From assembly GCA_017410375.1 (NCBI GenBank), contig JAFQQW010000051.1, forward strand, positions 102,733 to 166,732: 64,000 nucleotides of DNA, in the 5' to 3' direction. Both the position numbers and the translations under genes were made by a program. Each line of letters opens with the position of its first letter. The stretch's first letter is position 1. Below are positions 95 to 49,146 of the stretch, piece after piece. The stretch is from Clostridia bacterium (GTDB lineage: Bacteria; Bacillota; Clostridia; RGIG6154). Below the pieces are notes generated by a model. That model made no database searches and was not told where the DNA came from. It saw only the letters and a program-made list of their open reading frames with translations.

Positions 95-678
95 TGCTGT
101 CAAGTCGCCTGCTGTTTTTTGGGTTAAGCGGTTTGCGCCCTCACAGGTTTGGCGGTGCTGATGCCCTTGCGGTCGGTCATGGATTTTACGGTACCATCTA
201 AGTTGTACACATAGGTTACGCTATCGTCCAAGGCATCGGTAACGGTAATAGGCTGATTGAGGAAGTTATATTTATAGGTGGTGGTAGACTGTTCACCTGT
301 GTTGCCTACTGTTTGGGTGAGCATTCTGCCACCCTTGTCATAGGTATAGTTGACCTCGGTGCTATCGCCCTTGTTGTTTTGGCTTACCTTTTTTAAGTTG
401 TTATTGGCATCATAGGTATAGTGGATATAGGAAACTTCGTTTACTTCTCCAAAGGGGTTTGTAAGATACCCTTCTTTAATCATATTGCCGTTTCCGTCAT
501 ACCAATAGTTATGCCAAACGGTGGTTTCGCCCTCGTCATAAGCTTCAGAAACCAACTCGTTACGGGGATTGTAGGCATAATTCATAATAAAGCCGTTTGG
601 CGCCTGTGTTGCGTACATATTGCCATAAGCATCATAGTAAAAGGAATGAGTCCGGCACAATACCGAACTCATTCTCAA
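95..678 (-). pseudogene. RHS/YD-repeat internal fragment, a diverged duplicate of residues ~1061-1252 of the adjacent RHS gene; no N- or C-terminal parts
   Basis: Nucleotides 95-651 align to 2916-3490 at ~92-95% identity; the 184-aa ORF matches the main protein almost residue for residue; homology ends abruptly at both sides. Confidence 0.8.
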
Positions 679-732
679 GCAAGTTAATGTTTAATTTTTG
701 GTCTAAACTTTTAGGCTATCTTCGTTAGAAAG

Positions 733-1185
733 TCACCATTTTTTTATTATTTCGACTAAACATTTTTCTTCTTTCCCGAAAAACAATTTTCCACTGAACA
801 TGAGCAACGCAATAACGAGATATAAAACTATGAAGATAAACTGCACTAATGCCTTTTCTTGATTTAGAAGAGTTGTTGCTCCTAATAATGACCAATTACC
901 ATACAACAAAACAGATAAAATTACTAGAAAAAATATCATTGGAATAGTTTTGAATTTAAAGTTCCCGTCTAACACAATACTATCGTTTTCTTTCTGTGCT
1001 TTACATTTAAAAACTCTTCGAAACGGATGTTGTAAAGTATTATTCACATAAGTAAGATATACATAGCTATTATTTTTTTTGAAATATAACCCTTTTTGAA
1101 AAAAGAAAGGCTTCATTTCTTGAGCATTTGACTTCAAATATTCTAATAGTTCTGTCTCCGATTTAAAATTAGTTATATATTTCAT
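733..1185 (-). CDS. Putative immunity protein for the RHS C-terminal toxin; small membrane protein with 2 TM helices
   Basis: ATG 4 nt after the RHS stop codon; RBS GGAG upstream; two hydrophobic helices in the C-terminal half; position typical of rhsI/wapI. Confidence 0.55.
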   Translation of the reverse strand: MKYITNFKSETELLEYLKSNAQEMKPFFFQKGLYFKKNNSYVYLTYVNNTLQHPFRRVFKCKAQKENDSIVLDGNFKFKTIPMIFFLVILSVLLYGNWSLLGATTLLNQEKALVQFIFIVLYLVIALLMFSGKLFFGKEEKCLVEIIKKW

Positions 1186-1189
1186 AAAT

Positions 1190-4100
1190 TCACCAACTCC
1201 AAAGAATTTTTCCAAAATTTATATCAGCATGTAATTCAGCAGGCAAAACACTAACTCCTCCCGAAACACTCCCGCCTTTAGATGTATCGAAGTCTCCTCC
1301 TACATATCCCGCTGACCCACCTGCTGATATTGACATTCCTTCTAAATCATATATAGTATCTGCAGAATTGATAACTATTGTCCCGCTAACAGACGCATTG
1401 GGTGTGCCTGCACCAACACCACCAAATACTATTATTCCTTTGTTACCATAGTCATCCCAAACGAACATAATTTGAATATTGAGTTTAATTCCAAATGCCG
1501 CAGATGCCGAAATCCCCGTTCCATATGCTTCTTCTCCAGTAACATCAACATATGTTATTGGATTATTCAGTGCATAAACATATACGTTAGCACTTTGCAG
1601 TACGGAATTTATATCAGGTATGCGTGCAAAGGAACTATCTACATCTTTATGTTTTTCTCCATAAATCATGTTATCAAGATTCCAATGGGTGTCTTTCTGT
1701 GTAAATCTACCGGTATTGGGGGTATAATAGCGTGCACGGAGATAGATGGAGTCGGATTCCGCATCGTAGTATTCACCGCAATATCTAAAGGGATTTGTGT
1801 CGTTGGTGTCTATATTTCGTTCCACACCAAAGCCATCATATTCATAGTGTTTTACACTTTCACCTGCACTATTGGTTAAGTGTACAACATCACCATGTGC
1901 ATTATGGACATAGTACTGTGAATTATTACTGATTAAGTCAAGACCATAATAATAGTTTTGTATACCATCCTTAACCAAATTCATGCCGTCCCAAATTTGG
2001 TTGGTGGTTTTTCCATTTACTGTCTTGCTATTTCTTAAACCATCCGCAGTATAAGTATATGTTGCTTGCTCGGTCCCTTTTCCTCTAAATTCTACTAAAC
2101 GGTTAAAATCGTCATACTCGTAATGTGCAACATTGGGTACTTGTTGCGGTGTCCAGAAGTCGGCAGTCAATTCACTTTCTGTAGGTGTTGTTCCGTCTTT
2201 GGATGTATAAGTTTCGGTTATTTCAGACATCAGGTTGCCATTCTCATCATAGCTATAGGAAGTTAATTCCTCTACCTCACTTGCAGTATACATCTTACTG
2301 CCTGTCAGTTGTTTGTTGTTTTTGTCGAAGGTGTTTATTACTGTAAAACTTTCTTCGCCCGTTACAGATAAAGCTGTACGGTTGCCACGGCTGTCATAGC
2401 TATAAGTCATGTCAATATCGCCGACTGTTTCTGTTTTCAGTCTGTTTACACCGTCATAGGTGTAGGCGGTGGTTACACCGTCCTCGGTTTTGGTTGCCAC
2501 ATTGCCGTCTGTAAAGTAAGTATAGCTGATATTGGAAAGCACATCTGTATCGTTAGAAGCGGTTACATTGGTTGTCCAACCGGCATTGTTATAGGTATAA
2601 TCTGTGGTTACGCCGTTGCCCAGTACAGATTTGGTTAATCTGTTATTTACATCATAGGTATAGCTTGAAATGGCATTATTGCCTTGCTTTACAGTTGTTA
2701 AGCGGTTTGCATTGTCATACACATAAGACAAGCTATAGTTTGGCATAGAGAAGGTCAAACGGTTACCGCGTTTATCATAGGTATAGTTTTTTGTAACGCC
2801 GTCTGTTACCTCTTTGGTGAGCCAACCCAAGCTATTATAGGTATAGGCAGAGCTTGTTTGTTGCGTTCCGTTTTGGGTGATGCTTGCCCCTACTCTATTA
2901 TTCATCATATCATAATTATAGGTTGCTGTCAAGTTGCCAGCCGTTTTTTGGGTTAAGCGGTTTGCGCCCTCATAGGTATAGGCGGTACTGATGCCCTTAC
3001 GGTCTGTCATGGATTTTACGGTGCCGTCTAAGTTATACACATAGGTTACGCTATCGCCCAAAGCATCGGTTACAGTAACAGGCTGATTGAGGAAGTTATA
3101 TGTATAGGTGGTGGTAGACTGTTCGCCTGTATTGCCTACCGTTTGGGTGAGCATTCTGCCGCCCTTGTCATAGGTATAGTTGACCTCGGTGCTATCGCCC
3201 TTGTTGTTTTGGCTTACCTTTGTTACGTTATTATTGGCATCATAGGTATAGTGGATATAGGAAACTTCGTTTGCTTCTCCAAAGGGGTTTGTAAGATAGC
3301 CTTCTTTAATCATATTGCCGTTTCCGTCATACCAATAGTTATGCCAAACGGTGGTTTCGCCCTCGTCATAAGCCTGAGAAACCAATTCGTTACGGGGATT
3401 GTAGGCATAATTCATAATAAAGCCGTCGGGAGCCTGTGTGGCGTACATATTGCCATAGGCATCATAGTAATTGGTGGTTGTGTTACCTAAAGCATCTTTT
3501 ACGGTGCGCGGCTGATTGACACCGTTATAGGTATAGGTTGCAACTGTTCCTTTTTCGTCGGCAACCGAAAGGACATTACCCATCTTGTCATAGGTATAGG
3601 TGGTTGTACCTGTGTCGGGTGTAGTTTGTGAAGTCATAAACCCGAGTTCGTTATACTTTTGCGTTACATCAAAATGTTGATTATTGGTTTTATAGGTTCG
3701 GGTTTTGATTTGGGTGCCGGTATGGGTGCCGTCATCCGAAGCAATGTCAAACAAGGTATAGGTATACTGTTGTTTTGCCTTTAACTCGTCATTATAGAAC
3801 TCTTTCTGCTCTAAGATTTTGCCGCCGTCGTTAAAGGTGTACTCGATTTTGGTATAGTCGCCATCGGTATTTTCAAACACTTTGTTTGTGCTTATTCTGC
3901 CACGGTTGTCATAGGTCACTTCGTCCATTTGTACCCAGGTTTCGCCATCTAATGCATAGCTTGCGGTGTACCGACCCAGTCCGTCATAGATTTGTTTTAC
4001 ACGGTTGCCGTTGGAGTCGGTGGCGATGATGATGTTGTTTTCATAATCATAGCTATAAAGACTTGTGCTGTTTAAGGTTAAATTGGTTTGAGACAGCACA

Positions 4101-6673
4101 TCACCCGAAATATTGTATGTGGTGGTATGGGTATTGCCATTGGCATCGGTTGCGCGAACGGCTCTGCCTAACATATCGTAGGTTTCGGAGGTGGTATGGT
4201 CCGAAACGGCTCTGAAGCCTGTGGTTGCTGTGTTTACAATTAAGCTATAGTCGTTTAAGTTGTTCGCTTCGGTATTTAATTCCGGATAGGTATAGGTATA
4301 GGTTGTGGTGCCTTCATCTTCATCATAAGTAACAGATGCCAATGTGCCATCCGCATTATAGGTATAGCTTTGTGTTCTTGAACGCAGGTCGGTACCGCTT
4401 ACCGTCATGGATGCAGGGGTTTTGCCGTCCGAGCTGAAAGTATAGGTTGTGGTAAGATTTACCGCTCTGTTTGATGTACCGCCATTTACGGTATGGGTTT
4501 TAAGTTGTTCGTAGGGGCCATAGGTATAGGTTTCGGTATAGCCTGCAACACGTTTACTCCATATTTTATCCAATCCTCCGGTGTATGAGGTTATTGTTGT
4601 ATAGGGAAGTCTGTTCTCCGGCACTTCAGCATCAACAGATGTTGCGTTTATTTGATACAAATCTGTTCGGGTAATTAAATTAGGATTCACTGCACCAGAC
4701 TCATATGTATAGTTCGTTTTAGTCAAAATTCCATCTTGTAAAACGCGACTTTCCGTCAAGCGTTGTTTAGAATCATAGATGTCTTTTTGTATACCATTCG
4801 GACTTTGGATTATAGTATAATGTGTATACTCTTCATCGTTTGTTATTTTTCCTTCCTGTGGATTGTTATAAGCATAGGTTGTTTCCATTTGTTTTTCGCC
4901 ATCAAACATGTAATATGTTTTGGAAACCTTCTGTTTTTCTGTTTCATGCTCGGTATAATTGAAATATACATTTGATGTATCATACTCGTATACTTTTTTA
5001 GTGTTATCTGAAAGTTCAACTTCGGTAAGTAACATCTTCCAATCTGCACGAGTAGCATTTTCTGAATATCCAAACTCTACCAAGTCCTGAACAAGCTTAT
5101 GTGTATATGTCGTTTTGTCTTGGCTTGTTTCTGTTCCGCGATACACATTTAAAGTGTAGATATTATCTGTATATAAATTATTACCCGGATCGACCATCGC
5201 ATCGTTTTCAGATATTGTTTCATATGTAACAATTATGTTTTCGTCAAATGCTCCTTGTTCTTCCGTTTGTTGATCGTAAGGAACACTTCCTACCGTGATA
5301 TTTGCCAAAAGATCTCCATTATAATTAAATCGTATAGAACGTCCATAAGTGTCTACAATATTTAACAACTTATCTCCAGAGAAATTGTATGTAATATAGT
5401 TTCCAAATCGATCTTCTATTGCTACCATTCGTTGATCATACAAATTGTAATAACGTTTTGTCCCTTCAGGGTCTGTTACCTTCGCATTATATTCGCAATA
5501 CGGAAGCTCCCGATAATATTCCGAATCAAAATTATCGGTAAATTCAACATCCCAATCATTCAAAACGTTAACCTGTCCGTTATTTGTATAGGTTGTTACT
5601 TTTTGATATGTAACCGTCCCATAATCTGCATCTTGACGATATGAAATGTAAAGTTCATCGTCTTTTTCGGTGCTGAAATGAGCTGTTCCAACATAAAATC
5701 TATCGTTTATCGGCCCATCTAAATATTTGTTTTCCCATTCGGCAAAAGGAAGTTGTATACGCCAACCATTACCTATTGATGTGCCCATTGCAGGATCTGT
5801 AACATTCATTAACTCTACTTTTGTTTCATAAGAAACTTCGGCACAAACTGCACCCAAATTTGTATTTCGCACTAATTTAACTGCGTTCGCATCTGATGAT
5901 TGAATGTCCTCATACATATATAAAATACTGCTTGAATCTAATGATGGATTCGATTCAGGCAATATAGTCATGCCGGAAACATTATTTTGCCCATACTCAG
6001 AATAGTTCATTAAAACAGATATTCTATGATTTTCATCTTCTGCCAACAACATTTCTGTTTCGCTATTAAATACAACATATATTGGTTGCGTAGTATTATT
6101 TTCCAGATAATACGTGTAAATATATTGGTAGTATTTTTCATTTACTACTTCGTTATTTGTTTTATAATTAATAGGATAACGACTTGAGTTGTTTGTGTAA
6201 TCAAAATCAGATCCCATTTCATTTGAAATAGTTTGTAAGGCACTGTTATACACGCGGTTAACAGAAACGTCCAAACCAGCTTTGCCCGGCAAATATAAAT
6301 CCGTTGATGAATAGTGCAATGCACCAGTAGCACTGTTTATATAGCTGTTGCCCGATTTATCAAAAATTGCTCCCTGGTTTCTTCTATCGCCTAAAATACT
6401 ATTCAAATATTGTTGTTCTTCATAAACAACCGGGTCAAAATCTGCAGTTTCGGCACTTGTTGCTTCAACACTATATGTTGCTCCGATTGTCTCGACATCC
6501 ACCCCAGCAACTTGCATCGCAAAAGAAACGTTGTTCTCCATAACCAACAAAGGATGTTCATCACTATATACTGTTTGCACTACACTTTTTTGTGAAACCG
6601 ATTCAATTGCAAATGCTGGTGCAATTTGAAAAACCATTAATGCTGAAAGCACCCACGCTGTAAATTTTTTCAT
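1190..6673 (-). CDS. RHS/YD-repeat polymorphic toxin (WapA-like). It has a Sec signal peptide, an RHS shell, a degenerate DPxGL-type motif (NPITYVDVTGE) and a ~115-aa glycine-rich C-terminal toxin domain
   Basis: Signal peptide MKKFTAWVLSALMVFQIAPAFA; many YD repeats; RHS core end RARYYTPNTGRF...NVYVYALNNPITYVDVTGE; RBS GGAGG 9 nt upstream. Confidence 0.9.
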   Translation of the reverse strand: MKKFTAWVLSALMVFQIAPAFAIESVSQKSVVQTVYSDEHPLLVMENNVSFAMQVAGVDVETIGATYSVEATSAETADFDPVVYEEQQYLNSILGDRRNQGAIFDKSGNSYINSATGALHYSSTDLYLPGKAGLDVSVNRVYNSALQTISNEMGSDFDYTNNSSRYPINYKTNNEVVNEKYYQYIYTYYLENNTTQPIYVVFNSETEMLLAEDENHRISVLMNYSEYGQNNVSGMTILPESNPSLDSSSILYMYEDIQSSDANAVKLVRNTNLGAVCAEVSYETKVELMNVTDPAMGTSIGNGWRIQLPFAEWENKYLDGPINDRFYVGTAHFSTEKDDELYISYRQDADYGTVTYQKVTTYTNNGQVNVLNDWDVEFTDNFDSEYYRELPYCEYNAKVTDPEGTKRYYNLYDQRMVAIEDRFGNYITYNFSGDKLLNIVDTYGRSIRFNYNGDLLANITVGSVPYDQQTEEQGAFDENIIVTYETISENDAMVDPGNNLYTDNIYTLNVYRGTETSQDKTTYTHKLVQDLVEFGYSENATRADWKMLLTEVELSDNTKKVYEYDTSNVYFNYTEHETEKQKVSKTYYMFDGEKQMETTYAYNNPQEGKITNDEEYTHYTIIQSPNGIQKDIYDSKQRLTESRVLQDGILTKTNYTYESGAVNPNLITRTDLYQINATSVDAEVPENRLPYTTITSYTGGLDKIWSKRVAGYTETYTYGPYEQLKTHTVNGGTSNRAVNLTTTYTFSSDGKTPASMTVSGTDLRSRTQSYTYNADGTLASVTYDEDEGTTTYTYTYPELNTEANNLNDYSLIVNTATTGFRAVSDHTTSETYDMLGRAVRATDANGNTHTTTYNISGDVLSQTNLTLNSTSLYSYDYENNIIIATDSNGNRVKQIYDGLGRYTASYALDGETWVQMDEVTYDNRGRISTNKVFENTDGDYTKIEYTFNDGGKILEQKEFYNDELKAKQQYTYTLFDIASDDGTHTGTQIKTRTYKTNNQHFDVTQKYNELGFMTSQTTPDTGTTTYTYDKMGNVLSVADEKGTVATYTYNGVNQPRTVKDALGNTTTNYYDAYGNMYATQAPDGFIMNYAYNPRNELVSQAYDEGETTVWHNYWYDGNGNMIKEGYLTNPFGEANEVSYIHYTYDANNNVTKVSQNNKGDSTEVNYTYDKGGRMLTQTVGNTGEQSTTTYTYNFLNQPVTVTDALGDSVTYVYNLDGTVKSMTDRKGISTAYTYEGANRLTQKTAGNLTATYNYDMMNNRVGASITQNGTQQTSSAYTYNSLGWLTKEVTDGVTKNYTYDKRGNRLTFSMPNYSLSYVYDNANRLTTVKQGNNAISSYTYDVNNRLTKSVLGNGVTTDYTYNNAGWTTNVTASNDTDVLSNISYTYFTDGNVATKTEDGVTTAYTYDGVNRLKTETVGDIDMTYSYDSRGNRTALSVTGEESFTVINTFDKNNKQLTGSKMYTASEVEELTSYSYDENGNLMSEITETYTSKDGTTPTESELTADFWTPQQVPNVAHYEYDDFNRLVEFRGKGTEQATYTYTADGLRNSKTVNGKTTNQIWDGMNLVKDGIQNYYYGLDLISNNSQYYVHNAHGDVVHLTNSAGESVKHYEYDGFGVERNIDTNDTNPFRYCGEYYDAESDSIYLRARYYTPNTGRFTQKDTHWNLDNMIYGEKHKDVDSSFARIPDINSVLQSANVYVYALNNPITYVDVTGEEAYGTGISASAAFGIKLNIQIMFVWDDYGNKGIIVFGGVGAGTPNASVSGTIVINSADTIYDLEGMSISAGGSAGYVGGDFDTSKGGSVSGGVSVLPAELHADINFGKILWSW

Positions 6674-6686
6674 TTATAATCCCTCC

Positions 6687-9600
6687 TCACTCTTGATAAC
6701 ATTTCAAATTAATATGACCTTCTACTTTTGAAGTGAATTCTAGCACATGAACCAGACCACTCCAATAGCTTTCGTCTAAAACTTCCTCTGTTGTGTACTC
6801 AATTTTAAGTATACCTTCGCTGTTCTCAACAACCTCAGTTGCCCCATGATTATTCGGAATTACATGCTGAATAATGTTGTCCACTTCATCATCTGTAAGC
6901 TCTAACATATGCGCATCATATTCAATAACCATAACTGTTTTACCTTCTGCTTTTTCTTTTGCCGTCACCGAAACATATACTTTTTCACCCGGTTTTACAT
7001 ATTTAATTAATCTGCCGTCCTCAACAACTGAAACGTCTTGAAGCACCTGTAAATAATATGGTGTTGCAGTTCGTCCTGCAAATGTTTTAATATAAAAATG
7101 TGTTACGTCGGTATCTGTTTCATCTGTATAATATCCTCCGTTTACAGGCTCTACTTTCTCCCACTCTCCTTGATGCTTTTTATATACATAAAATGTTGCA
7201 TCCTTGTTTTCAGAAGACATTGTGATATTATACTTTGTAGCAAATCGACTTACAGGAAATTTATAATAATCTCTATCGGTTTCGTAGTCAAAGTAAAGTG
7301 TTTTTTCACCCTGATTATATGTATGTTCGGCACTTGAAAAATCTGAAAAATCGATATAGTATTTTCTGGTATACCCATTGTTACCTTCCAGCAAAATATA
7401 CCCTTCACGATTTTGAGTTTCACTATTCAACGGCAAAACTGCTTCTAATGTAGTTGCTGCACTCGCTATACATGTATCATTTCCATTATATACATCATGC
7501 AATTCAATTCTCGCACCACCCTCAACCGGATCTTGCGCTGTCACTTTTACTTTAATACCTTCTTCGGTTCGCACAATCGAAGGGCCAAAGGTAAAATACG
7601 GCAAATTCATGTCTTCGTATTTTGCAAGTGTTGCATCATACCCTTCTTGCGTATCTGGCAGAATAATATCATAATCTGTAATTGTTAAATAATCAAGACG
7701 TGCATATCCATACCCATAAAATGTAAGTGTCGCTTGGCCTTTTTTCAAAGCAACAGATTCCGCTTCATCATAATTATAAAAAGCATATTCATTTGATGTC
7801 AAAAAATTACGCTTCATGCCAAAGCCATATAAATTATAGAGGTTGTCTGTTCCACCTATAATCCTATCATAAGTAATATCAAAATTATCATTACTATTTT
7901 TTCCTGTGATTGGGATTTCATCCCCCTCGCCTTGCTTAACAGTAATGCCAAATACTCTCTCAAACGCCTTTTGACTATCTTGAACATTTGGCGAACTTGC
8001 GGCACGGGCAGAAATTTCGTATTGCCCATCCTTAGGAATTTGCACAGTTGCAGTCATACGCACAACTTGTTTTCTATCGTTTACGCGTTTGTCTTTTGCT
8101 TGCATAATCGGATTTCCATAATTTGAATTATACACGCCAAAACCGCTTGTACTTTCAAACCAAACATCCTCGCCAAAAAACTCGGCATCTGTCGGATGAA
8201 CTGTAAAATTATTTCTCGGTGTAAGTAAAATCGTTGTTTTGGATGATGGAACACTAAAAAGGTCTTCTGCCCGTTTCCCGCTACGATTGAATGCTGTAAA
8301 TATCATTGAGTTGTACGAACTGTCATATAATCCTTCTGCCACAAAATCGGTTACATTACCATCGTAATAACCAAAAACTTCTAAAGTGCCGTTGCTTCCG
8401 ATACCATAAACTGCATATCCGTCTATGTGTGTTCCTTCAACTTCGAAAACAACTTCCTCATTTTCGACTTGATAACCGGATTTAGAATAATAGGGTGACG
8501 GATAATTCAGCACTGCCCCAACAGATGCTTCATACATCGCCTCATTCATATTTTGTGACATGGGTTGAGATGCTAAAATTATAAAATCCATAATCGCACC
8601 GGGATATGCGTAAATGTTTAATGTATTAAATCCCTGCTCCAAATAAATGGGTTCAGCATCAGTATACATATGCGGTTTATGTTCAGCAGTAACATAGCTT
8701 CTTCTTGCTCCAAACAAATATCTCGGTTCATCGTTTATCATAAGAGCATTATAGTCGTCATAATCCGATAATTGATCCGATTCCGTAACCGCCTTATCAC
8801 CCTGCACATACTTTTCGACACCATTTTCATAATAAGAAATCATAAATGTACCGAATTTGGGATCATTACTCTCCTGCTTCTGAGATAACGCTCTGGCACT
8901 TACATAATAATTCCCAGATACAGGAACAAAAATCTCTGTTGTATGCTTTAGAGGTTCTCCGTAGTTATTATTTAAAACAGTATATCCGCCCGATTCTTTT
9001 GAGAACGAATATGCAGAATACATATAGTCAATTCCCGCTGACGGAATATTATCTGTAAACGCGCTCCCGGTCACAAATTCTGTTTCAGCATTCAATACAA
9101 TCGCATAATTATCATTTCCGGGATTATATGTAATTGTCTCTTGTAAAAAATTCCCGAATGCATCCCATGCCGTTATATCAATTGTTACAGGTTCAAGACG
9201 ACATAATGAACTTAAATTCAAGCTATGCTCTTTTGTCGAATAAGAATTTGTTCCATAAGTATCTGTAAATGAAATTTCATAAGCAACCGGCTTGTTAGGA
9301 CCTGCTTCGTATTCTAACCAAGAATTTCCTTCTTGTACAGATATAGCAGGTTCTTCTAAAAAAGCAAATGTAGTATTTTCAAATACACCATAAGTCTGTT
9401 GATATTCTGTTTTTGTCTGCACATTAACAAGCGGTTGCTCAGAAATAACCAAAAAATCTAATCGAGAATAACTATTCGCATACAAATTAACCGTTGCTTG
9501 TCCTTCTTCCAGATAAACAGGTACTGCATCAAAGTAATTGTATGACTGTAAATCAGTAACAAATTCCCGCATAGAACCAAACAAATATCTGTTTTGTCCG

Positions 9601-10121
9601 TTGATGTCACAGCTATCAAAATCATACATATTCTCATCAGACCACGGATTGCTACCTGTTACAAAACTTTCAACTGAATTCTGCGTGAACGAAACCTGCA
9701 TAGTTCTGTTCATGTGGTAGTTGGTCTGCGTTACAGGTGTTGTCGTTGTTTTCATTCTGGCGCCTACATAATACATACCTGACTCAGGAATAACAATATC
9801 ACAATTTGTATAACGTGCGCTCGAGCCTGTCGTTACCAAAAGATAAGAACCAAAATTCCCGTTAAACGCGCCACCCGCATTTGCGTCATATGTGAAATTT
9901 TCATCATTAAAGTCTTTACCTGTTAGCACAATAGCATTTGTTACAGTTTGGATGTCTCCATCTGTTGATACTGTGCTTTTTTCTACCGATTCGACACTAA
10001 TTATCTCTGCATTTTCTTCTTCAAGTATCAAATCGTTGCTTAAATCTGATTCTGCAATGGATAATGTTGGAATGCTTAATAGCAACCCAATGCTTAACCA
10101 CAATGCAATCATTTTTCTCAT
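6687..10121 (-). CDS. Large secreted protein (1144 aa from ATG 10121) with three ~180-aa CBM-like beta-sandwich repeats, co-transcribed upstream of the RHS toxin
   Basis: RBS AAAGGAG 9 nt before MRKMIALWLSIGLLLSIPTLSIA; three internal repeats ending ...SRLDFLVISEQP / ...IMDFIILASQP / ...ARLDYLTITDYD; stop 13 nt before RHS start. Confidence 0.8.
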   Translation of the reverse strand: MRKMIALWLSIGLLLSIPTLSIAESDLSNDLILEEENAEIISVESVEKSTVSTDGDIQTVTNAIVLTGKDFNDENFTYDANAGGAFNGNFGSYLLVTTGSSARYTNCDIVIPESGMYYVGARMKTTTTPVTQTNYHMNRTMQVSFTQNSVESFVTGSNPWSDENMYDFDSCDINGQNRYLFGSMREFVTDLQSYNYFDAVPVYLEEGQATVNLYANSYSRLDFLVISEQPLVNVQTKTEYQQTYGVFENTTFAFLEEPAISVQEGNSWLEYEAGPNKPVAYEISFTDTYGTNSYSTKEHSLNLSSLCRLEPVTIDITAWDAFGNFLQETITYNPGNDNYAIVLNAETEFVTGSAFTDNIPSAGIDYMYSAYSFSKESGGYTVLNNNYGEPLKHTTEIFVPVSGNYYVSARALSQKQESNDPKFGTFMISYYENGVEKYVQGDKAVTESDQLSDYDDYNALMINDEPRYLFGARRSYVTAEHKPHMYTDAEPIYLEQGFNTLNIYAYPGAIMDFIILASQPMSQNMNEAMYEASVGAVLNYPSPYYSKSGYQVENEEVVFEVEGTHIDGYAVYGIGSNGTLEVFGYYDGNVTDFVAEGLYDSSYNSMIFTAFNRSGKRAEDLFSVPSSKTTILLTPRNNFTVHPTDAEFFGEDVWFESTSGFGVYNSNYGNPIMQAKDKRVNDRKQVVRMTATVQIPKDGQYEISARAASSPNVQDSQKAFERVFGITVKQGEGDEIPITGKNSNDNFDITYDRIIGGTDNLYNLYGFGMKRNFLTSNEYAFYNYDEAESVALKKGQATLTFYGYGYARLDYLTITDYDIILPDTQEGYDATLAKYEDMNLPYFTFGPSIVRTEEGIKVKVTAQDPVEGGARIELHDVYNGNDTCIASAATTLEAVLPLNSETQNREGYILLEGNNGYTRKYYIDFSDFSSAEHTYNQGEKTLYFDYETDRDYYKFPVSRFATKYNITMSSENKDATFYVYKKHQGEWEKVEPVNGGYYTDETDTDVTHFYIKTFAGRTATPYYLQVLQDVSVVEDGRLIKYVKPGEKVYVSVTAKEKAEGKTVMVIEYDAHMLELTDDEVDNIIQHVIPNNHGATEVVENSEGILKIEYTTEEVLDESYWSGLVHVLEFTSKVEGHINLKCYQE

Positions 10122-10188
10122 ACCTATCACTCCTTTTAAATTTTTGGATAGTTGCGGGATAGAACTATCCACTATGAGAATACAACAT

Positions 10189-10197
10189 ATTATATCA
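10189..10197 (-). promoter_or_regulatory. Candidate extended -10 element (TGATATAAT) for the 1144aa-RHS-immunity operon
   Basis: Reverse complement of attatatca; ~70 nt upstream of the start codon; no good -35, but the TGn extension is present. Confidence 0.3.
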
Positions 10198-10216
10198 AAA
10201 ATCAACATTTACGACT

Positions 10217-23380: not shown

Positions 23381-23431
23381 TCAATAATTTCAAATACAAA
23401 AATTCTGCACAAAAGAAGGAGAATGTATATC

Positions 23432-26400
23432 ATGACAAAAAGAGGACTAACCTTATTGTTGGCATTGCTTATGTTTATACCTTTAGTAGGAACACCGGTT
23501 TTTGCTGAAGAAGACGGAATTATAGTTACGCCAACTACTGACAATTGTATTGAATTTTCAGGTTGGACCGGTTCATCAAGTTTGAAGAGATATGACGGAA
23601 AAACCAGTTCACCTATTGGTGGAGGTACAGCAAAATTTGAAGTCCCTTCAACACTCAACGGATGGACAACACTTTATTACTGGATCCCTAAATATGCAAG
23701 CGGGTATACTGAGAACATTAATTGCACAATAGGTCTTGAAATTATCACAGCAAATGGTCAGATTCGTAAATTTGCCAAAAAAATAGTAAGTGGCAATGGC
23801 GGTGAATGGCTTGAAATTGCAACTGCTTATTTTTCATCTGTCGAAACCGAATACATAAACGTAACAGGTAATACTTCGGGTCAAAACAGACTTACAGATG
23901 TTAAGTTTGTAAATGGTGCAAAGGCCGCATATCACATTCTACCTGATCTTTTTTCAGAAACAGGCAGTTGGTCCTGCTCCTCATATCCTAAAAACGGTGC
24001 CTATCAGGACAAAGTTATGGTTTCTACCTATGCAAATGAACACCCTGCAATAATAATTGGCGAAAATCTTATTCCCGGAAATTACTATGTCTATGTTCAT
24101 TCCGTCGACTGTGATTATTCCACCGGCGACAGAGCGTTTTATCTTGAAATAAACGGACAAGCAGTTTATAAGCTTAACGAAACAGCATCAAAATCAAGAT
24201 ATTTCGGTACCCACCTTGTTGGCACTGACATTGAAAACAGTCAACCAAATTCTGCCGAAGCTATCCCATATTTTGATTGGGAACAAATGACAGCACCTTC
24301 AAAAACAATAACTGTAGGCGAAGATGGGAAACTTGAACTTAAAGTTCATGCTCTGTCAGGATTTGCAAGATTTGACACAATTGTTATAACGCAGGACGAA
24401 AATTTTGACAAAACCCTTACGGGTGAAATGGGAATTTATTGTGCAGAACCTTTCCCCGCAATTACCCCATACAGTGACCGTATTCAATTCCCTAAAAAAT
24501 ATATGGGAAACTTAACTTCCGTAGATTTATGTGCAACTCTTTCAAACAGCCATACAACGATATCTTTCAGAAAAGGTATAACTGAAAGTGGCGAAACTGT
24601 TGTTCAAAGAAAAGTTGTAACAGATGATGTCGTTACCATTCCTTATGAAAACGGATTCGGTGTGATGTCACTTTTTGCAACAAAAGCAACAGGCTACAAT
24701 TATAGCGGATACTACGGTCAATTTCAAACCGAATATCCCTCCGAACAATCGGGAATTTTGCGTATAAACGATCAGAATGTATTCCGTTCAGGTATACCAG
24801 AATGGATTATTCCTGAAACTCTTGAACAGATAAACGAAAACACCGTTAAAATGACAGCTGACGGAACATACGCTTCGCTTGTTATGGTGTGGACCCTTGA
24901 AGAAAATGATTTAGAGCCTAAAGTTACGGTTACTGCGACCGCAAAACAAGACGGTGAACTTTCGTTTGGTTTCTTCAACGAGGTTCAGGAAATTGCAAGA
25001 GACAAAGTGGGCTATGTTCTTAACCCTTACAGATGGCAAGAAAGCAGATTACCTGACCCCGGAGTTACAATAACAGAAACTAACTCAACCACCGACCACA
25101 CTCAAATGACCTATAAAATGAATGAAAAAGGTCAGGAAATTTCACTCGGTGTTGCGGTTGACAGATCATCAATAGATTTAACAGTTCCTGTTGAAGGCTC
25201 AGAGTATGAAACAGGTAGATGGCCGCACGATACAGCTGAATACACCTTTACAAAAGAGTGGAACGAAGATAAGCTCCCTGACGGAACATATAAAAGCACT
25301 TACCTTGATTATAAAGAAGAAAATGCAGACTTTGTAATGAACACCACAGGTGAAAACGGCGGAGTTCTTCCTGCAATTTTTGCTCCTAAAATGGCAAGTA
25401 TTGACTCTTCTTTCAAAACGGGAGATACATACACTTTCTCTTACAGACCCTTGTCAATCGTATCAACATTAGGTGAAAACAGAGGATGGTACGATATGTA
25501 CAAACACGTAGCACAGGACTTAAGAGGTGTTTACGACTACCGTGACAATTACTATTCATCTATGACAGATGCCGCGTTCAACATTCTGAATTTCTTAAAG
25601 GACGATGAGGCAAGCGGTTGGGACTCTAATATGATTGGTCACTATAATATCGAAGACTCAAACTGGGTAACAAACTCTAATGGTCTTTCGTATCTTCAGA
25701 ATTACCTTCTTACCGAAGACTATGACCTTTTAATGAGAAGAACTCTCCCGTCAATGGGTTCAATGCTCACAAGAAGCAATTCACATATTCATAGCAGATT
25801 TTCAATAAGAAGTGAGTCAGAAGGACCTATCAACAAAGAACTTGAGTACACTCCTATCGGCATGGGTAACGCTGCATTTGAGGGTGCATATCTTATGAGC
25901 AGAGGCCAGATGCCTGTTTACAGAAATATCGCAAAGAGCAGATTCATGAATACCAATGTTGAATCTGCAGGAATGAATCTTAAAAACACCACCGACTACT
26001 ATTGGTACGAGCGTGCGAACGGCTCTGAAACCTTCCCTCTTGCAATTGCCAATGCAGACGAATATCTAATCAAGCGTTCATTTCTTTCAAGTGATAAAAC
26101 TCCCGACCTTGAAAGTTTCATTAACATAAGCTACACTCCACAGTTTCAGGCACAGCTTGATGCGTATGAAATTACAGGTGATACAAAATATCTTGAAGGT
26201 GCAGTTGAAGGTGCAAGAAGATTTTTGCCTTCACTCAGAATCACCGATATTCCCGAAAGCAAAGATGTTTTATGGATTGAAAACACAGAGCAATTAGTGG
26301 CTGAAGACAAGCAAAGACGCAGCAGTGCCTGGTCTATAGCAGACAGAAGATACCGCAGAGGTGCTCTTATGGAAGCAACCGGAAGCACAATATCCGAAAA

Positions 26401-28423
26401 CGGTTCTGTCTACAACGAATACATCATCAAAGGTTATGATGAAAACTACATGAATGTCCGTGATATGACACAACCATATCCTGCATGGGTAACTTCAAGA
26501 ACCGGTCTTGGTGTTGAGCAATTTTCGACCTGTTTAGAAGGTGCAAACATTACAATGTCAACTTGGGCAGGCGATGTTTTAAGACTTGGTTATCTTTCTG
26601 GCGATGAGCTTATGATGGACCTTGCGCGTTCCTCGTTGGTAGGTAGATTTGCAAATTATCCAGGATATTACATCAGAAACTACACAACCATTTACGGTCT
26701 TGAAAATTATCCTACAGAGGCATTCGACAGCACATACCTTTATTTTCACCACGCACCTGTATTACTCTCAGCAATTCACGACTATCTTTTTTCAAATGCT
26801 TATGTAAAATCCGACGGAAAGGTAAACTTTCCCAATACGAGAATTCAGGGCTATGCATGGTTTAACAACAGAATGTATGGTCATGAGCCCGGCGTAATTT
26901 ATGATGAAAAGGAAATGTGGCCCTGGCTTAAAGAAGGCACAATTGAAGTTTCATCAAAGCAGATTGACTGGATTGCAGGAAGAAACGAAGGCAGAGCGGC
27001 ATTTGTTCTGACCAATGCAGGTGATAACACAGAAAATATAACAGTTGCATTTAACGCAGACCTCGGTATAAAAAACGGAGCAGTTGCAACCATTTACGAC
27101 AAAACCGGCAACGCGGCAACTACTGTCGTAAAAGATAACAAGCTCACTGTTGCAATTCCTGAAAAGGGAATTGTGACAGTTGCAGTATCCGGTTCCGGCA
27201 TCCACATGCCCGAATACGCCAAAATAGTATTCAACGAAACAGCGCAGAACGAATTGGGCACCTCTGCTCTCGGTCTTATGTACGAAGGAAGAGATTATGA
27301 ACAAAGTTACTCCATACAGCCAAACAATAGCTATACATTCACTTATGACATCGATAAAGGCTACGATGTTAAAGCGTATGCACTTGCACTTGCACCCGAC
27401 AACTATATGGGTTACATCTTTGTGGGCGGACGTTCAGCAGAACAATATGAATTCATAAACGAACAAGGCGAAAAGGCAGTCGGTGGCGGCGACGGGAACA
27501 AAGGCATTATAAAAACCACTCTCAAATGGCGTTTTGAGGGAGAAAGTGATATTAAAACAGAAATTGACGAAAACTTTCCCTACGAATTTTTCATTCCGGT
27601 TACTGACAGAAACAAAAAAATCGTATTTAATGTTGAAACCGAATACCAAGACGGTATTAAAACGCTTGACAAAGAATACACCATCGCTCCACAGGAAATT
27701 ACAGTTTATGAACCCCAAAAATATACGTTTGAGCCGATATCTATGTCTATTGTAAGCAATCTCGGTGGTGTAAGTTCGCCACTTACAACCGGAAAAAGCA
27801 AATATTGTATTCAAAATCAAAGCATCAGCTTTTTCCCGTTCAATGCTACTGCACAAAATGCACTTAAAGACTGTTACTTAAGCGGTTACCTGAAAGTAAA
27901 AGACTTAACCAGCACTACCGATGTTATAGAAAAAGGATATGTACTTTTTGACAATGTTCCCATCGTAAACAGTGTAATAAACACCTCTGCGAGCAACAGA
28001 CTTGATTTTTCCGTAAACGACATCATCTACACAGACATACCGGAAAACACCCATGAATACAAAAACGGCACATATATAGGGGCACTTCAGGGAACAGTTG
28101 TGGGTCTATCAGAACACACAGATGCCTATGAATGGGGAAATCTCTACATAACAAACGCAGATTCTAAAAAAGGCTTGCAGTTTACCAGAAACGGAAACAC
28201 CTATACCCTTTCAAATGATGGTGCTTGCTGTCTGTTTGTTGCGGTCGCTACATACAGTGACCAAAACCAAATGCTTGATGCACGGATCGAACAGGTAATC
28301 GTGAGTATTAACAACAGTAAATCATACACCATTTCCAACAACCAGAAACTCTTTGTATGGGAATGCGATGTAAACAAAGGTACTTCACTATGCCCCGTTT
28401 TTTCAAGCAAATCCGCACAATAA
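23432..28423 (+). CDS. Giant secreted protein (1663 aa from ATG 23432) with an N-terminal CBM-like domain and the uncharacterized ~850-aa core shared with the 1798-aa protein
   Basis: RBS AAGGAGA; signal peptide MTKRGLTLLLALLMFIPLVGTPVFA; FARFDTIVITQD motif; long collinear similarity to 14665-20061. Confidence 0.85.
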   Translation: MTKRGLTLLLALLMFIPLVGTPVFAEEDGIIVTPTTDNCIEFSGWTGSSSLKRYDGKTSSPIGGGTAKFEVPSTLNGWTTLYYWIPKYASGYTENINCTIGLEIITANGQIRKFAKKIVSGNGGEWLEIATAYFSSVETEYINVTGNTSGQNRLTDVKFVNGAKAAYHILPDLFSETGSWSCSSYPKNGAYQDKVMVSTYANEHPAIIIGENLIPGNYYVYVHSVDCDYSTGDRAFYLEINGQAVYKLNETASKSRYFGTHLVGTDIENSQPNSAEAIPYFDWEQMTAPSKTITVGEDGKLELKVHALSGFARFDTIVITQDENFDKTLTGEMGIYCAEPFPAITPYSDRIQFPKKYMGNLTSVDLCATLSNSHTTISFRKGITESGETVVQRKVVTDDVVTIPYENGFGVMSLFATKATGYNYSGYYGQFQTEYPSEQSGILRINDQNVFRSGIPEWIIPETLEQINENTVKMTADGTYASLVMVWTLEENDLEPKVTVTATAKQDGELSFGFFNEVQEIARDKVGYVLNPYRWQESRLPDPGVTITETNSTTDHTQMTYKMNEKGQEISLGVAVDRSSIDLTVPVEGSEYETGRWPHDTAEYTFTKEWNEDKLPDGTYKSTYLDYKEENADFVMNTTGENGGVLPAIFAPKMASIDSSFKTGDTYTFSYRPLSIVSTLGENRGWYDMYKHVAQDLRGVYDYRDNYYSSMTDAAFNILNFLKDDEASGWDSNMIGHYNIEDSNWVTNSNGLSYLQNYLLTEDYDLLMRRTLPSMGSMLTRSNSHIHSRFSIRSESEGPINKELEYTPIGMGNAAFEGAYLMSRGQMPVYRNIAKSRFMNTNVESAGMNLKNTTDYYWYERANGSETFPLAIANADEYLIKRSFLSSDKTPDLESFINISYTPQFQAQLDAYEITGDTKYLEGAVEGARRFLPSLRITDIPESKDVLWIENTEQLVAEDKQRRSSAWSIADRRYRRGALMEATGSTISENGSVYNEYIIKGYDENYMNVRDMTQPYPAWVTSRTGLGVEQFSTCLEGANITMSTWAGDVLRLGYLSGDELMMDLARSSLVGRFANYPGYYIRNYTTIYGLENYPTEAFDSTYLYFHHAPVLLSAIHDYLFSNAYVKSDGKVNFPNTRIQGYAWFNNRMYGHEPGVIYDEKEMWPWLKEGTIEVSSKQIDWIAGRNEGRAAFVLTNAGDNTENITVAFNADLGIKNGAVATIYDKTGNAATTVVKDNKLTVAIPEKGIVTVAVSGSGIHMPEYAKIVFNETAQNELGTSALGLMYEGRDYEQSYSIQPNNSYTFTYDIDKGYDVKAYALALAPDNYMGYIFVGGRSAEQYEFINEQGEKAVGGGDGNKGIIKTTLKWRFEGESDIKTEIDENFPYEFFIPVTDRNKKIVFNVETEYQDGIKTLDKEYTIAPQEITVYEPQKYTFEPISMSIVSNLGGVSSPLTTGKSKYCIQNQSISFFPFNATAQNALKDCYLSGYLKVKDLTSTTDVIEKGYVLFDNVPIVNSVINTSASNRLDFSVNDIIYTDIPENTHEYKNGTYIGALQGTVVGLSEHTDAYEWGNLYITNADSKKGLQFTRNGNTYTLSNDGACCLFVAVATYSDQNQMLDARIEQVIVSINNSKSYTISNNQKLFVWECDVNKGTSLCPVFSSKSAQ

Positions 28424-29604: not shown

Positions 29605-29608
<4 letters not shown>
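29336..29608. repeat. Composite repeat element copy 2: 20-bp tandem array (about 6 units, 29344-29460), bidirectional terminator (29473-29513), A-rich spacer, tRNA-operon terminator hairpin (29553-29599)
   Basis: Homologous to 10261-10585 in the same orientation; ends exactly at the 3' CCA of tRNA-His. Confidence 0.8.
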
Positions 29609-29682
<74 letters not shown>

Positions 29683-29724
29683 ATATATAAAGCCTTTTTT
29701 TAAAAAAAGGCTTTTTTGTAAAAA

Positions 29725-29803
<79 letters not shown>

Positions 29804-29808
29804 ATTTA

Positions 29809-29882
29809 TGGAGCGGGTGATGGGAATCGAACCCACACGACCAGCTTGGAAGGCTGGGGTTCTACCACTGAACTACACCCGC
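29809..29882 (-). tRNA. tRNA-Gly (anticodon TCC), CCA encoded
   Basis: GCGGGTG acceptor stem; anticodon loop CTTCCAA; T-loop TTCGATTC. Confidence 0.85.
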
Positions 29883-46998: not shown

Positions 46999-49146
46999 TT
47001 AATATAAATATTGATTCAAATCCGTCAGCACCGATTCATCCTCGATCTCCGAATCGGTCAGCAAAATGATGCCGTCGCTGTAGTAAACATTTTTGCCAAA
47101 GGCTTCGGCTAAAGCACGTACCGGAACATAGGTGCGTGCCATTTTGTTTTCAGGCGGTGCATCCAGCGGTAAAACTTCGCCGTCTATCGCGTACTGCGGA
47201 ATGTCGGTTGCAAACAAAAGGGTTTTGCCTTTAAGCTCAATTTTAATTTCATCTGTACCGCCCAGAATACCGGGGGTGCCCACATAAGAAACGGTTGCGC
47301 CTATAGACTCTGCGATAAAGCGAAGCGGTATTAAGGTGCGGTCTTTATCGTTGATATAAGGAACCGCGCTTTTGTTGTCCGGGTCAATGAATCGCTTGGA
47401 AAGGTTTGCATACGCAACATTTTCCGAAAGCTTTAAAACCAGACCCTGACTTGCAGAATATGCGCCTGCCGGGACAATTCGCGCGCTGTCGGCACGAAGA
47501 TATCCGGCACCGTTTCGCTTTAAGGAAACGGTAACCTTATCCCCTTTTTTCAGGTTGTAAACACCTAAATTTTCCATACCCGGCTCGGTGTTTAGTAAAT
47601 CCAAAGTAAATTCTTTTATCTGTTCGCCGTTTATGTATACAGCGCCCTTGGCTTCTTTATTGCTGTTGTCATAGCTCATGCGGTACAATTCAAGCAGATA
47701 CTTTGCATTTTCGGTTGCCACCAGGTTCCACTTGACTTCCGAATCCTGTGCATTTGCGTATGCCGACTGTGCTGTAAACCCTTTTATGCTGGATTTTAAC
47801 CAGTTGCCACTCATTTCAATATCGGAGCTTCCGCTGTTAATATCGTAAAGTGCCACTTCTCCCGGAATCTTTGTTGTCCGACAAGGGTCAATGGGCACCT
47901 TGCGGTTAAATTCGTCGGTCCCGTCAAAGCACACAAACGAAACATCATCCAAGTATACATCCCCCTTACCCTCAGCAGAAAGACTGATATACGCACGGTT
48001 ATCGGTAATCTCTACCTGCTCCATATTGATGATTGCAAAGTCCTCGCCCGTGGCTGTGCTGAAAGAAAACGCCTCGTCATTGACCTTTGCGGTAAGCTTT
48101 GTGAAATCCTCGCACTGCACATAAAATGAGAGCTGATACGTACCGTTTGCGATATAATTCAGATCCTGTGCTACCGTACCGCTTTTCTCAATTTTCAAAG
48201 CACCTGTACCTGTTCGGATATGTGCATCTTCTGTTTCTACAGAAATGTTATTGCTGTTTTTCGGTTCTAACCAGGATGCCGGCGTATCTAAACGCATTTT
48301 AGAAATGTCTGTGGTGTAGTTGACGCGGTTGTTATCATCAAAAGAGGGGTTTACAATGATATTTTCCCCTTTTAAAGGCATGGTGTAAAAGCGGAAATAA
48401 TCCCAGACCGATTCACCGGGTAGCTTTTTGTCATCAATCTCGCCGCTGAGTTCTGTATTGGCAAGAGCTGTCAGCCACAGATTCGGTCTGCCGTACATTT
48501 CCGCATCCCTGGATTCACCGATTTTTTCACCGTTTAAATACCACACAATGCGGTCAGGCAGGTATTCACAGCCTGCTACAAAATAGTCTTTTGCGGCATC
48601 GGTAAGGTTTCGGAACAGATATCCACCGTCCGCAGTCTGCACCCATTTCCGCGGACCTGCCAGATGTCCGCCCAGCCAGTAATGCAAATTGGGTGCAATA
48701 TTTGTGGTATTGTTGGAGTCTACTTCATAGATATCAATTTCAATAGACGAGTTAAAAGCAGGTGATGTAATGCCGTCTCCGTTTACGCCTGCTGTCCAGA
48801 ATGAGGAATGCAAGCCTCCCGTTCCCCCGAACAGCTTAGAGCGCACCTCATAATAGCCGTAGCCTAAGCCGAAGTTTGTAATCACCCCGCCCCCGCGATA
48901 GTCGCCATGGGATTTTTCAAAGCCGATATGTAAATTGCCGTCCGAAACGGTAACCATGGCAGGGTCGTTATAGCCTCCACGGGTTTTTACCCCTTCATTA
49001 CGGTAGTGCCAGTTTTCAAGATTCAGCTCTTTGCCGTCAAATTCATCCGCAAATGTAAGACTATAGCCTTCTCTTGGCGGTTCTGCAAAAGCTGTAATGC
49101 CAAAACAAAGCACAAACAGCATGCAGAAAAGGAAACATTTTTTCAT
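46999..49146 (-). CDS. Secreted GH16 beta-glucanase/laminarinase with beta-sandwich (CBM-like) modules and a C-terminal copper-amine-oxidase-N-terminal-like cell-wall binding domain
   Basis: Signal peptide; GH16 catalytic EIDIYE (ExDxxE); C-terminal DRTLIPLRFIAESIGA and RTYVPVRALAEAFG motifs. Confidence 0.8.
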   Translation of the reverse strand: MKKCFLFCMLFVLCFGITAFAEPPREGYSLTFADEFDGKELNLENWHYRNEGVKTRGGYNDPAMVTVSDGNLHIGFEKSHGDYRGGGVITNFGLGYGYYEVRSKLFGGTGGLHSSFWTAGVNGDGITSPAFNSSIEIDIYEVDSNNTTNIAPNLHYWLGGHLAGPRKWVQTADGGYLFRNLTDAAKDYFVAGCEYLPDRIVWYLNGEKIGESRDAEMYGRPNLWLTALANTELSGEIDDKKLPGESVWDYFRFYTMPLKGENIIVNPSFDDNNRVNYTTDISKMRLDTPASWLEPKNSNNISVETEDAHIRTGTGALKIEKSGTVAQDLNYIANGTYQLSFYVQCEDFTKLTAKVNDEAFSFSTATGEDFAIINMEQVEITDNRAYISLSAEGKGDVYLDDVSFVCFDGTDEFNRKVPIDPCRTTKIPGEVALYDINSGSSDIEMSGNWLKSSIKGFTAQSAYANAQDSEVKWNLVATENAKYLLELYRMSYDNSNKEAKGAVYINGEQIKEFTLDLLNTEPGMENLGVYNLKKGDKVTVSLKRNGAGYLRADSARIVPAGAYSASQGLVLKLSENVAYANLSKRFIDPDNKSAVPYINDKDRTLIPLRFIAESIGATVSYVGTPGILGGTDEIKIELKGKTLLFATDIPQYAIDGEVLPLDAPPENKMARTYVPVRALAEAFGKNVYYSDGIILLTDSEIEDESVLTDLNQYLY

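Follow-up and report, generated by a model that had tools for sequence, protein, structure and literature searches.

Carbohydrate-binding modules (CBMs) of the CBM6 and CBM35 families, among them those of Saccharophagus β-agarase (2cdo/2cdp), Amycolatopsis CsxA (2vzp), and C. thermocellum (2w1w/2w47), adopt a β-jelly-roll fold whose sequence signature consists of two strands, "vP.aG.Y.v..R" and, at the end, "xxD.i.i". In CBM6, the cleft A ligand site comprises an aromatic pair plus an Asn. In Tc toxins, the binding protein is separate from the RHS cocoon, with the receptor-binding domains of TcA partnering an RHS-type TcB-TcC cocoon, and domain III of Cry toxins (4moa, 4d8m) is a CBM-like domain that steers the toxin to a surface structure. 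Related to these is the Golvesin/Xly "CBD-like" domain (PF25275; CBM6-CBM35-CBM36_like_2 in CDD), present in a Paenibacillus xanthan lyase (6f2p) and in two Bacteroides lectins, Cbeg4 and Cbeg5. Proteins have been described that are built on this domain and serve as lectins without a catalytic part (PMC9166713). Here, we describe modules of this kind in a 64,000-nucleotide stretch of DNA (the window) from a Clostridia bacterium (contig JAFQQW010000051.1, assembly GCA_017410375.1, forward-strand positions 102,733 to 166,732), in which gene A (6687-10121, minus strand) encodes a 1144-amino-acid (aa) secreted protein directly upstream of an RHS/YD-repeat toxin gene. A first-pass annotation made from the sequence had proposed that A shares a CBM-like module of ~150 aa with two giant proteins encoded farther along the window, B and C, and that this module hints at the surface structure recognized by the RHS system.

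We find that A contains three copies of a module, designated A-type, that falls in the CBM6/CBM35/CBM36 superfamily, and that the N-terminal modules of B and C, designated B-type, form a sister subfamily. Our preferred reading, to which we assign a probability of about 0.6, is that A is a lectin-like, non-catalytic protein secreted through the Sec pathway and built from repeats of a rare CBM6/35/36 subfamily, and that it is probably a targeting or tethering partner. By analogy, this would be the non-catalytic lectin role described for proteins carrying the Golvesin-type domain.

Gene A starts with an ATG at 10121; an AAAGGAG Shine-Dalgarno sequence lies 8 nt before it, and a typical signal peptide follows. 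The protein then comprises three units, each consisting of an A-type module, a linker, and a β-sandwich spacer, and ends in an all-β C-terminal region. The modules, delimited as hidden Markov model (HMM) domains, occupy residues 49 to 232 (9426-9977, minus strand), 339 to 522 (8556-9107, minus strand), and 629 to 820 (7662-8237, minus strand). They are related pairwise at 27-30 % identity (E 2e-11 to 3.5e-26); module 1 shares 30 % identity with module 2 over 187 aa (E 3.5e-26) and 28 % with module 3 (E 5e-17). Module 3 is the copy nearest to the B-type modules, and a B-type HMM aligns to it at residues 681 to 816. Searches of the whole protein against Pfam (E<=0.1) and NCBIfam (E<=0.01) returned no family match.

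The AlphaFold2 (AF2) model of A module 1, built from an alignment of 17 A-type modules, is all-β, with a predicted local distance difference test score (pLDDT) of 87.2 and a predicted template modeling (TM) score of 0.84. A Foldseek search of the Protein Data Bank (PDB) with this model gave 45 matches at E<=1e-3, mostly to CBM6, CBM35, and CBM36 domains and also to CBM-bearing enzymes, with target-normalized TM scores of 0.58-0.74. Prominent among them are CBM6 entries 2cdo/2cdp (E 1e-6), CBM35 entries 2w1w, 2w47, 2vzp, and 2w46, and the CBM36 entry 7ay3. The expectation that the module is CBM-like is borne out by this comparison, and the alternative that it is a generic Ig-like spacer is ruled out by the same jelly-roll fold. 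For the B-type modules, the fold was assessed by sequence profile, which matched 2vzp (3.4e-5), 2cdo (2.8e-4), 2w47 (6.5e-4), and the Paenibacillus xanthan lyase 6f2p (5.3e-4), with CBM35/CBM6 chains overall at 3e-5 to 1e-3; many of these PDB entries are the same ones retrieved by Foldseek with the A model.

Protein B, as a whole, also exceeds the Pfam cut-offs for Malectin (PF11721, 37.0 bits; cut-off 23) and Golvesin_C (PF25275, 36.5 bits; cut-off 31.6), whereas A and C match neither; single B modules score 15-20 bits on Golvesin_C. Taken together, the Foldseek matches, the profile matches, and the Pfam scores of B place both kinds of module in the superfamily that unites CBM6/35/36 with the Golvesin/Xly "CBD-like" jelly-rolls. 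A-type modules are thus, as modeled, β-jelly-rolls of the CBM6/CBM35/CBM36-like (galactose-binding-domain-like) superfamily. The likeness to the Golvesin-type domain consists of the B scores and the B-type profile, whereas A itself does not match PF25275, and because that domain has very few characterized members, it carries no prediction of a ligand.

What distinguishes the A-type is its length. Rather than the ~150 aa first proposed, these modules span ~180 aa (175-190), compared with ~146 aa for the B-type, owing to a conserved insertion of 35-45 aa with the consensus FV.G..P......DFDS......N.YLFGA. In the AF2 model, this insertion forms three extra short strands with high confidence. Relative to CBM6 and CBM35 modules, with which they share the jelly-roll (Foldseek E 1e-6 to 1e-4) and both the "vP.aG.Y.v..R" and the terminal "xxD.i.i" strands, A modules are ~45 aa longer, only 9-16 % identical, below Pfam thresholds, and have cleft residues that cannot be mapped. 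CBM_6 (PF03422) and CBM_35 (PF16990) matched neither A, B, and C (E<=0.1) nor the seven isolated modules (E<=10). Isolated A modules searched against Pfam at E<=10 gave only noise (TNF, BclA_C, PA14), and the A-type profile run against PDB sequences picked up only a non-significant strand of the CsxA CBM35 (E 3.8).

The A-type is also scarce. Only five close homologues of A were found among 5.8 billion proteins, and a search of 1.84 billion cluster representatives with the A-type profile returned only six at E<=1e-30 plus one fragment at 1e-40. A single-protein query of the representative genomes in GTDB found no relative. By these sequence comparisons, the A-type is a rare and previously unannotated subfamily, set apart by its insertion, within a CBM superfamily that is itself very common.

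The B-type modules lie in two genes. Gene B (14665-20061, minus strand) encodes a 1798-aa secreted protein with three such modules, a Cu_amine_oxidN1 domain (E 4e-37), and a large uncharacterized core. Its modules cover residues 35 to 181 (19519-19959, minus strand), 223 to 368 (18958-19395, minus strand), and 521 to 670 (18052-18501, minus strand); the second is 47 % identical to the first (E 4.5e-50), and the third is 31 % identical to the first (E 4e-18) and scores 20.3 bits on Golvesin_C. Gene C (23423-28423, plus strand) encodes a 1666-aa paralogue of B without any Pfam family, and its single module (residues 169-330; 23927-24412, plus strand) shares 27 % identity with B module 2 (E 1e-11). 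The B-type HMM scores this module at 170 bits, a value to be read with the fact that the HMM training set contained that sequence.

Pairwise BLASTP between A and B or C is insignificant (best E 0.008-0.5; whole proteins E 0.5-7, the best being 0.48 between A and B), although the weak matches are collinear. Comparison of profiles does reveal the relationship. The five close homologues of A carry three to four modules each; we aligned the 17 A-type modules to 19 B-type modules using hhalign and obtained a probability of 98.6 % and an E-value of 5.8e-16 over 135 columns that span both domains entirely, at a profile-alignment identity of 15 %. The real score of 100.8 compares with 12.3 for a reversed control and at most 18.5 for 20 column shuffles, all controls together lying at 7-19. 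The A-type HMM matches B in register (E 8e-11), including module 1 at residues 43 to 104 (independent E-value, iE, 5.2e-7). We also translated the window in all six frames (167 frames >=80 aa, 34,078 residues) and scanned the result: the A-type HMM matched only A and B (B 4.6e-9), and an HMM built from the four B/C modules matched B, C, and A (A 6.8e-6), with the next frame at 0.33. A module suspected by eye in the 768-aa protein encoded between A and B was detected by neither HMM.

Larger databases point the same way. In the search of 1.84 billion cluster representatives, the A-type profile reached a B orthologue (P0030, E 6.3e-6), and of its 50 matches outside the A family, 20 are also recognized by the B-type HMM. 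Two bridging proteins connect to A by ordinary BLASTP: P0012, which has a B-like N terminus and a B-type module, matches A module 3 (E 4.8e-6), and P0021 matches a module plus spacer of A over 302 aa (E 5e-7). Both types occur in P0015 (2285 aa), in which B-type modules accompany a core that matches B at 34 % identity over 978 aa and a full-length A-type module lies near the C terminus (residues 1536-1713, iE 4.4e-13); P0029 is a fragment similar to P0015. On this sequence evidence, the A-type and B/C-type modules are homologous, descending from a common ancestor, beyond what chance would produce.

The short motifs that first drew attention to these proteins hold up well. All seven quoted motif pairs occur in A, B, and C where they had been reported, and each module contains the upstream PxxGxYxVxx(R/H)-like strand: PESGMYYVGAR, PVSGNYYVSAR, and PKDGQYEISAR in A; PKDGEYTVFVH, PKDGTYKIFVH, and AKEGDYKIWVR in B; and IPGNYYVYVH in C. 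The corresponding tails are ARFDLVVITDD (residue 166), GRFDLIVITND (residue 353), and ARLAGIYITSD (residue 655) in B and ARFDTIVITQD (residue 315) in C. The tail pattern given for A, (S/A)RLD(F/Y)L(V/T)I(S/T), describes repeats 1 (SRLDFLVIS, residue 219) and 3 (ARLDYLTIT, residue 807), but repeat 2 (AIMDFIILA, residue 509) deviates from RLD. In the six-frame translation, a tail expression matched six times and a strand expression five times, all inside A, B, or C, and the combined strand-plus-tail pattern matched four times in the window compared with none in 200 residue shuffles.

How much is shared is a separate matter. The proposal that A and B/C carry one common module stands insofar as the modules are homologous, belong to the same superfamily, and meet in the P0015 fusion; they are not the same module, given an identity of ~15 %, the A insertion, and the lack of a Pfam model for A. 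The same A-type profile search that found the B orthologue reached Pfam-verified CBM_6 proteins (P0020, 2.7e-7; P0028, 3.8e-6), so that ordinary CBM6 domains were reached about as well as B's own family. The A-B link is therefore one at the level of the superfamily rather than of a specific shared module, and at ~15 % identity, a shared ligand cannot be inferred. For this reason, we do not follow the suggestion that the B/C modules disclose the surface structure recognized by the RHS system, as the subfamilies are too divergent for specificity to be transferred between them. The common motif is genuine, a reflection of the very widespread CBM6/35 superfamily, and cannot by itself reveal an RHS receptor.

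The genomic neighborhood of A informs the second half of our reading. The window is identical to scaffold_36 of a Clostridia metagenome-assembled genome in ENA (A, 1144/1144 residues), on which A is followed in order by the RHS gene, a 150-aa membrane protein, an orphan RHS fragment, other genes, an agr cassette (LytTR regulator, kinase, AgrB, and a 49-aa peptide), the A paralogue P0004, a 2243-aa S8-Kelch-PPC protease, and an SLH protein. P0004 is a four-module protein of 1454 aa encoded ~9 kb past the RHS gene, beyond the start of the window (10001-14365 in locus L001; 17743-20453 in L006). In five of five locus types, an A-family gene lies directly upstream, on the same strand, of a gene for a giant secreted protein. 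The partner is an RHS protein in three of them (the window type, which includes L006 and L007; L003; and L005) and an S8-Kelch protease in two (L001 and L004). Since RHS proteins occur in some loci and S8-Kelch proteases in others, the constant feature is an A gene upstream of a giant secreted protein and not RHS as such. The designation of A as an RHS accessory protein draws on gene order and is weak. In L003 and L005, where the partner is an RHS/DUF6531 protein, an extra open reading frame (ORF) of 339 or 344 aa (L003, 8286-9305; L005, 4760-5794) separates the RHS gene from the A homologue; this ORF is conserved, without a known domain, and absent from the window.

The pairing of A with an RHS protein and of its paralogue with an S8-Kelch protease suggests that the A family probably provides glycan-targeting or tethering partners for giant secreted effectors. 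In such a scheme, gene A is co-transcribed with the giant secreted RHS toxin, and its paralogue is paired with the giant S8-Kelch protease; the loop end of each A jelly-roll would bind a polysaccharide or cell-surface glycan, multivalently, and the Ig/Fn3-like domains that follow the modules would act as spacers. The homology, the fold, the rarity, the insertion, and the gene order come directly from the analysis, whereas sugar binding by A, an interaction between A and the RHS protein, and any ligand overlap with B and C are properties that we infer. Should the A-type prove to bind a defined glycan, a new CBM family would begin with it, and there would be a rare means of learning how RHS toxins that Gram-positive bacteria of the gut and rumen secrete through Sec reach their targets, a poorly understood matter. 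We are doubtful of a broader proposal, in which the A family would constitute an unrecognized class of glycan-targeting partners for Sec-secreted giant effectors of Gram-positive Clostridia (with an RHS and an S8-Kelch branch, often near agr), built on a new CBM family that can also be appended to new six-hairpin-like glycosidases. Under that proposal, A would set the target-cell or substrate specificity of the effector, by analogy with TcA or the receptor-binding regions of CdiA in Gram-negative systems. Searching the literature for RHS proteins with a CBM partner in Firmicutes gave nothing pertinent.

Several observations weigh against a role for A as a glycan-binding partner. The synteny comprises five locus types, for which statistics are thin; A has no recognizable anchor or docking domain; and we found no docking segment common to the RHS protein and the S8-Kelch protease. 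On the side of ligand binding, no Pfam (including Pfam CBM) or NCBIfam model matched the A-type modules. In hhalign, the register of the last loop relative to CBM6 is ambiguous, with an Arg or a small residue (Ala) near the position of the cleft Asn, so that conservation of the binding site cannot be established. Cry toxin domain III is among the Foldseek matches of A module 1, and CBM6-like folds mediate non-glycan or mixed receptor binding as well.

The alternative that survives best, which we consider possible though rather unlikely, is that A works on its own as a secreted lectin or adhesin, functionally independent of RHS, and that its adjacency to the toxin gene reflects an agr-regulated secretome island. 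The change of downstream partner between RHS and S8-Kelch proteins would fit this explanation, as would the agr genes found ahead of A homologues in L001, L003, and L007, the additional ORF separating A from RHS in L003 and L005, and the failure to find in A any known RHS adaptor, chaperone, or delivery domain (e.g. DUF1795/EagR, PAAR, VgrG, or Tc-A) at the Pfam and NCBIfam thresholds given above. Set against it are the position of the A-family gene, which in each of the five locus types immediately precedes, on the same strand, the gene for a giant secreted protein, and, in the window, the tight junction between the two genes: RHS begins 13 nt past the A stop codon, and its GGAGGG Shine-Dalgarno sequence overlaps that stop.

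Less probable again is the view that the modules are homologous CBM-fold domains that no longer bind sugar, serving in A as spacers or as protein binders directed at a proteinaceous receptor or the RHS cargo. The lack of a match to any canonical CBM6/35 family HMM, a cleft A Asn that is not evidently conserved, and the presence of a CBM6-like receptor-binding domain, that of the Cry toxins, among the fold matches all speak for this view. However, aromatic positions are retained across the subfamilies in the hhalign alignment (W.W in the B-type, within "GW.WE", and Y.Y in the A-type, within "Y.Y.DA"), and the strong conservation of the A-type insertion (DFDS...YLFGA) suggests a functional surface. 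The P0015 fusion, furthermore, sets an A-type module beside a B/C-type putative glycosidase core, the usual setting of a CBM. The last alternative, that the resemblance is convergent or generic since many β-sandwich strands look like PxxGxYxVxxR ... DxIxIT, can cite the insignificant A-B BLASTP and the 15 % profile identity but is essentially refuted by the full-domain hhalign match with its clean reversed and shuffled controls, by reciprocal HMM matches confined in the window to A, B, and C, by the bridging proteins P0012 and P0021, and by the many PDB families returned in common by the structure and sequence searches.

The remainder of A, residues 821 to 1144 (6690-7661, minus strand), is modeled by AF2 as three β-sandwich domains; the pLDDT is only 63, and the Foldseek matches are generic FnIII/Ig tandems only. 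For the last 115 aa (6690-7055, minus strand), the best PDB profile match is a cohesin, 5g5d, with a marginal E-value (0.028). The last domain may possibly follow a cohesin-like pattern, a marginal assignment; Pfam Cohesin did not match A, and neither the RHS protein nor the S8-Kelch partner showed a dockerin. Upstream of A, a 1.2-kb stretch (10209-11386) has no ORF >80 aa and no Rfam match and may be a promoter or regulatory region.

The neighboring RHS/YD-repeat toxin (1190-6673, minus strand) is a protein of 1827 aa with RHS_repeat (E 4.7e-34), DUF6531, and Rhs_assc_core matches, and its C-terminal tip past the Rhs core motif (1190-1700, minus strand) is glycine-rich. We considered and rejected a Tc-toxin-like ABC arrangement, as A has none of the features of TcA (helical shell, channel, or Tc Pfam domain). 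The RHS protein has a Sec signal peptide and DUF6531 rather than a TcB architecture. Signal-peptide-like N termini were likewise recognized by reading the sequences of B and C. The RHS gene is followed by that for a 150-aa hydrophobic protein (733-1185, minus strand), an immunity-like candidate on the basis of its sequence and its gene call in public contigs, and then by a 178-aa orphan RHS fragment (within 124-1215, minus strand) that is 92 % identical to RHS residues 1062 to 1231.

B and C are paralogues with 26 % identity over 1408 aa (E 1e-109). Their common core (15382-18024, minus strand, in B; 24740-27500, plus strand, in C) has no Pfam or NCBIfam match and no named homologue. Its profile gives weak matches to a single region, all of them to (α/α)6 six-hairpin enzymes (6ex6 at E 5.7e-4, GH127 at ~0.1, and then GH76, GH88, and PL35), and B scores 20.1 bits against Pfam GH127, under the cut-off of 24.9. 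It is plausible, from such remote similarity, that B and C are glycan-enzyme-like or polysaccharide-degrading proteins, as had been proposed, and their core may represent a rare, undescribed glycosidase or lyase family. Their neighbors include a BNR_2 sialidase-like protein, AraC regulators, and a GFO/IDH/MocA oxidoreductase, which is consistent with a sugar-utilization locus.

Elsewhere in the window, a 715-aa protein (46999-49146, minus strand) combines GH16 with Golvesin_C (33.1 bits, residues 438-558) and Cu_amine_oxidN1 and thus places a further module of the same superfamily on a recognizable glycoside hydrolase. Three tRNA genes (29608-29882, minus strand) stand exactly where the GC content shifts from 0.35-0.41 on the side of A, RHS, B, and C to 0.42-0.48 on the side of housekeeping genes (ClpX, trigger factor, and AddAB), and the low-GC 29 kb (1-29500) may be an island.

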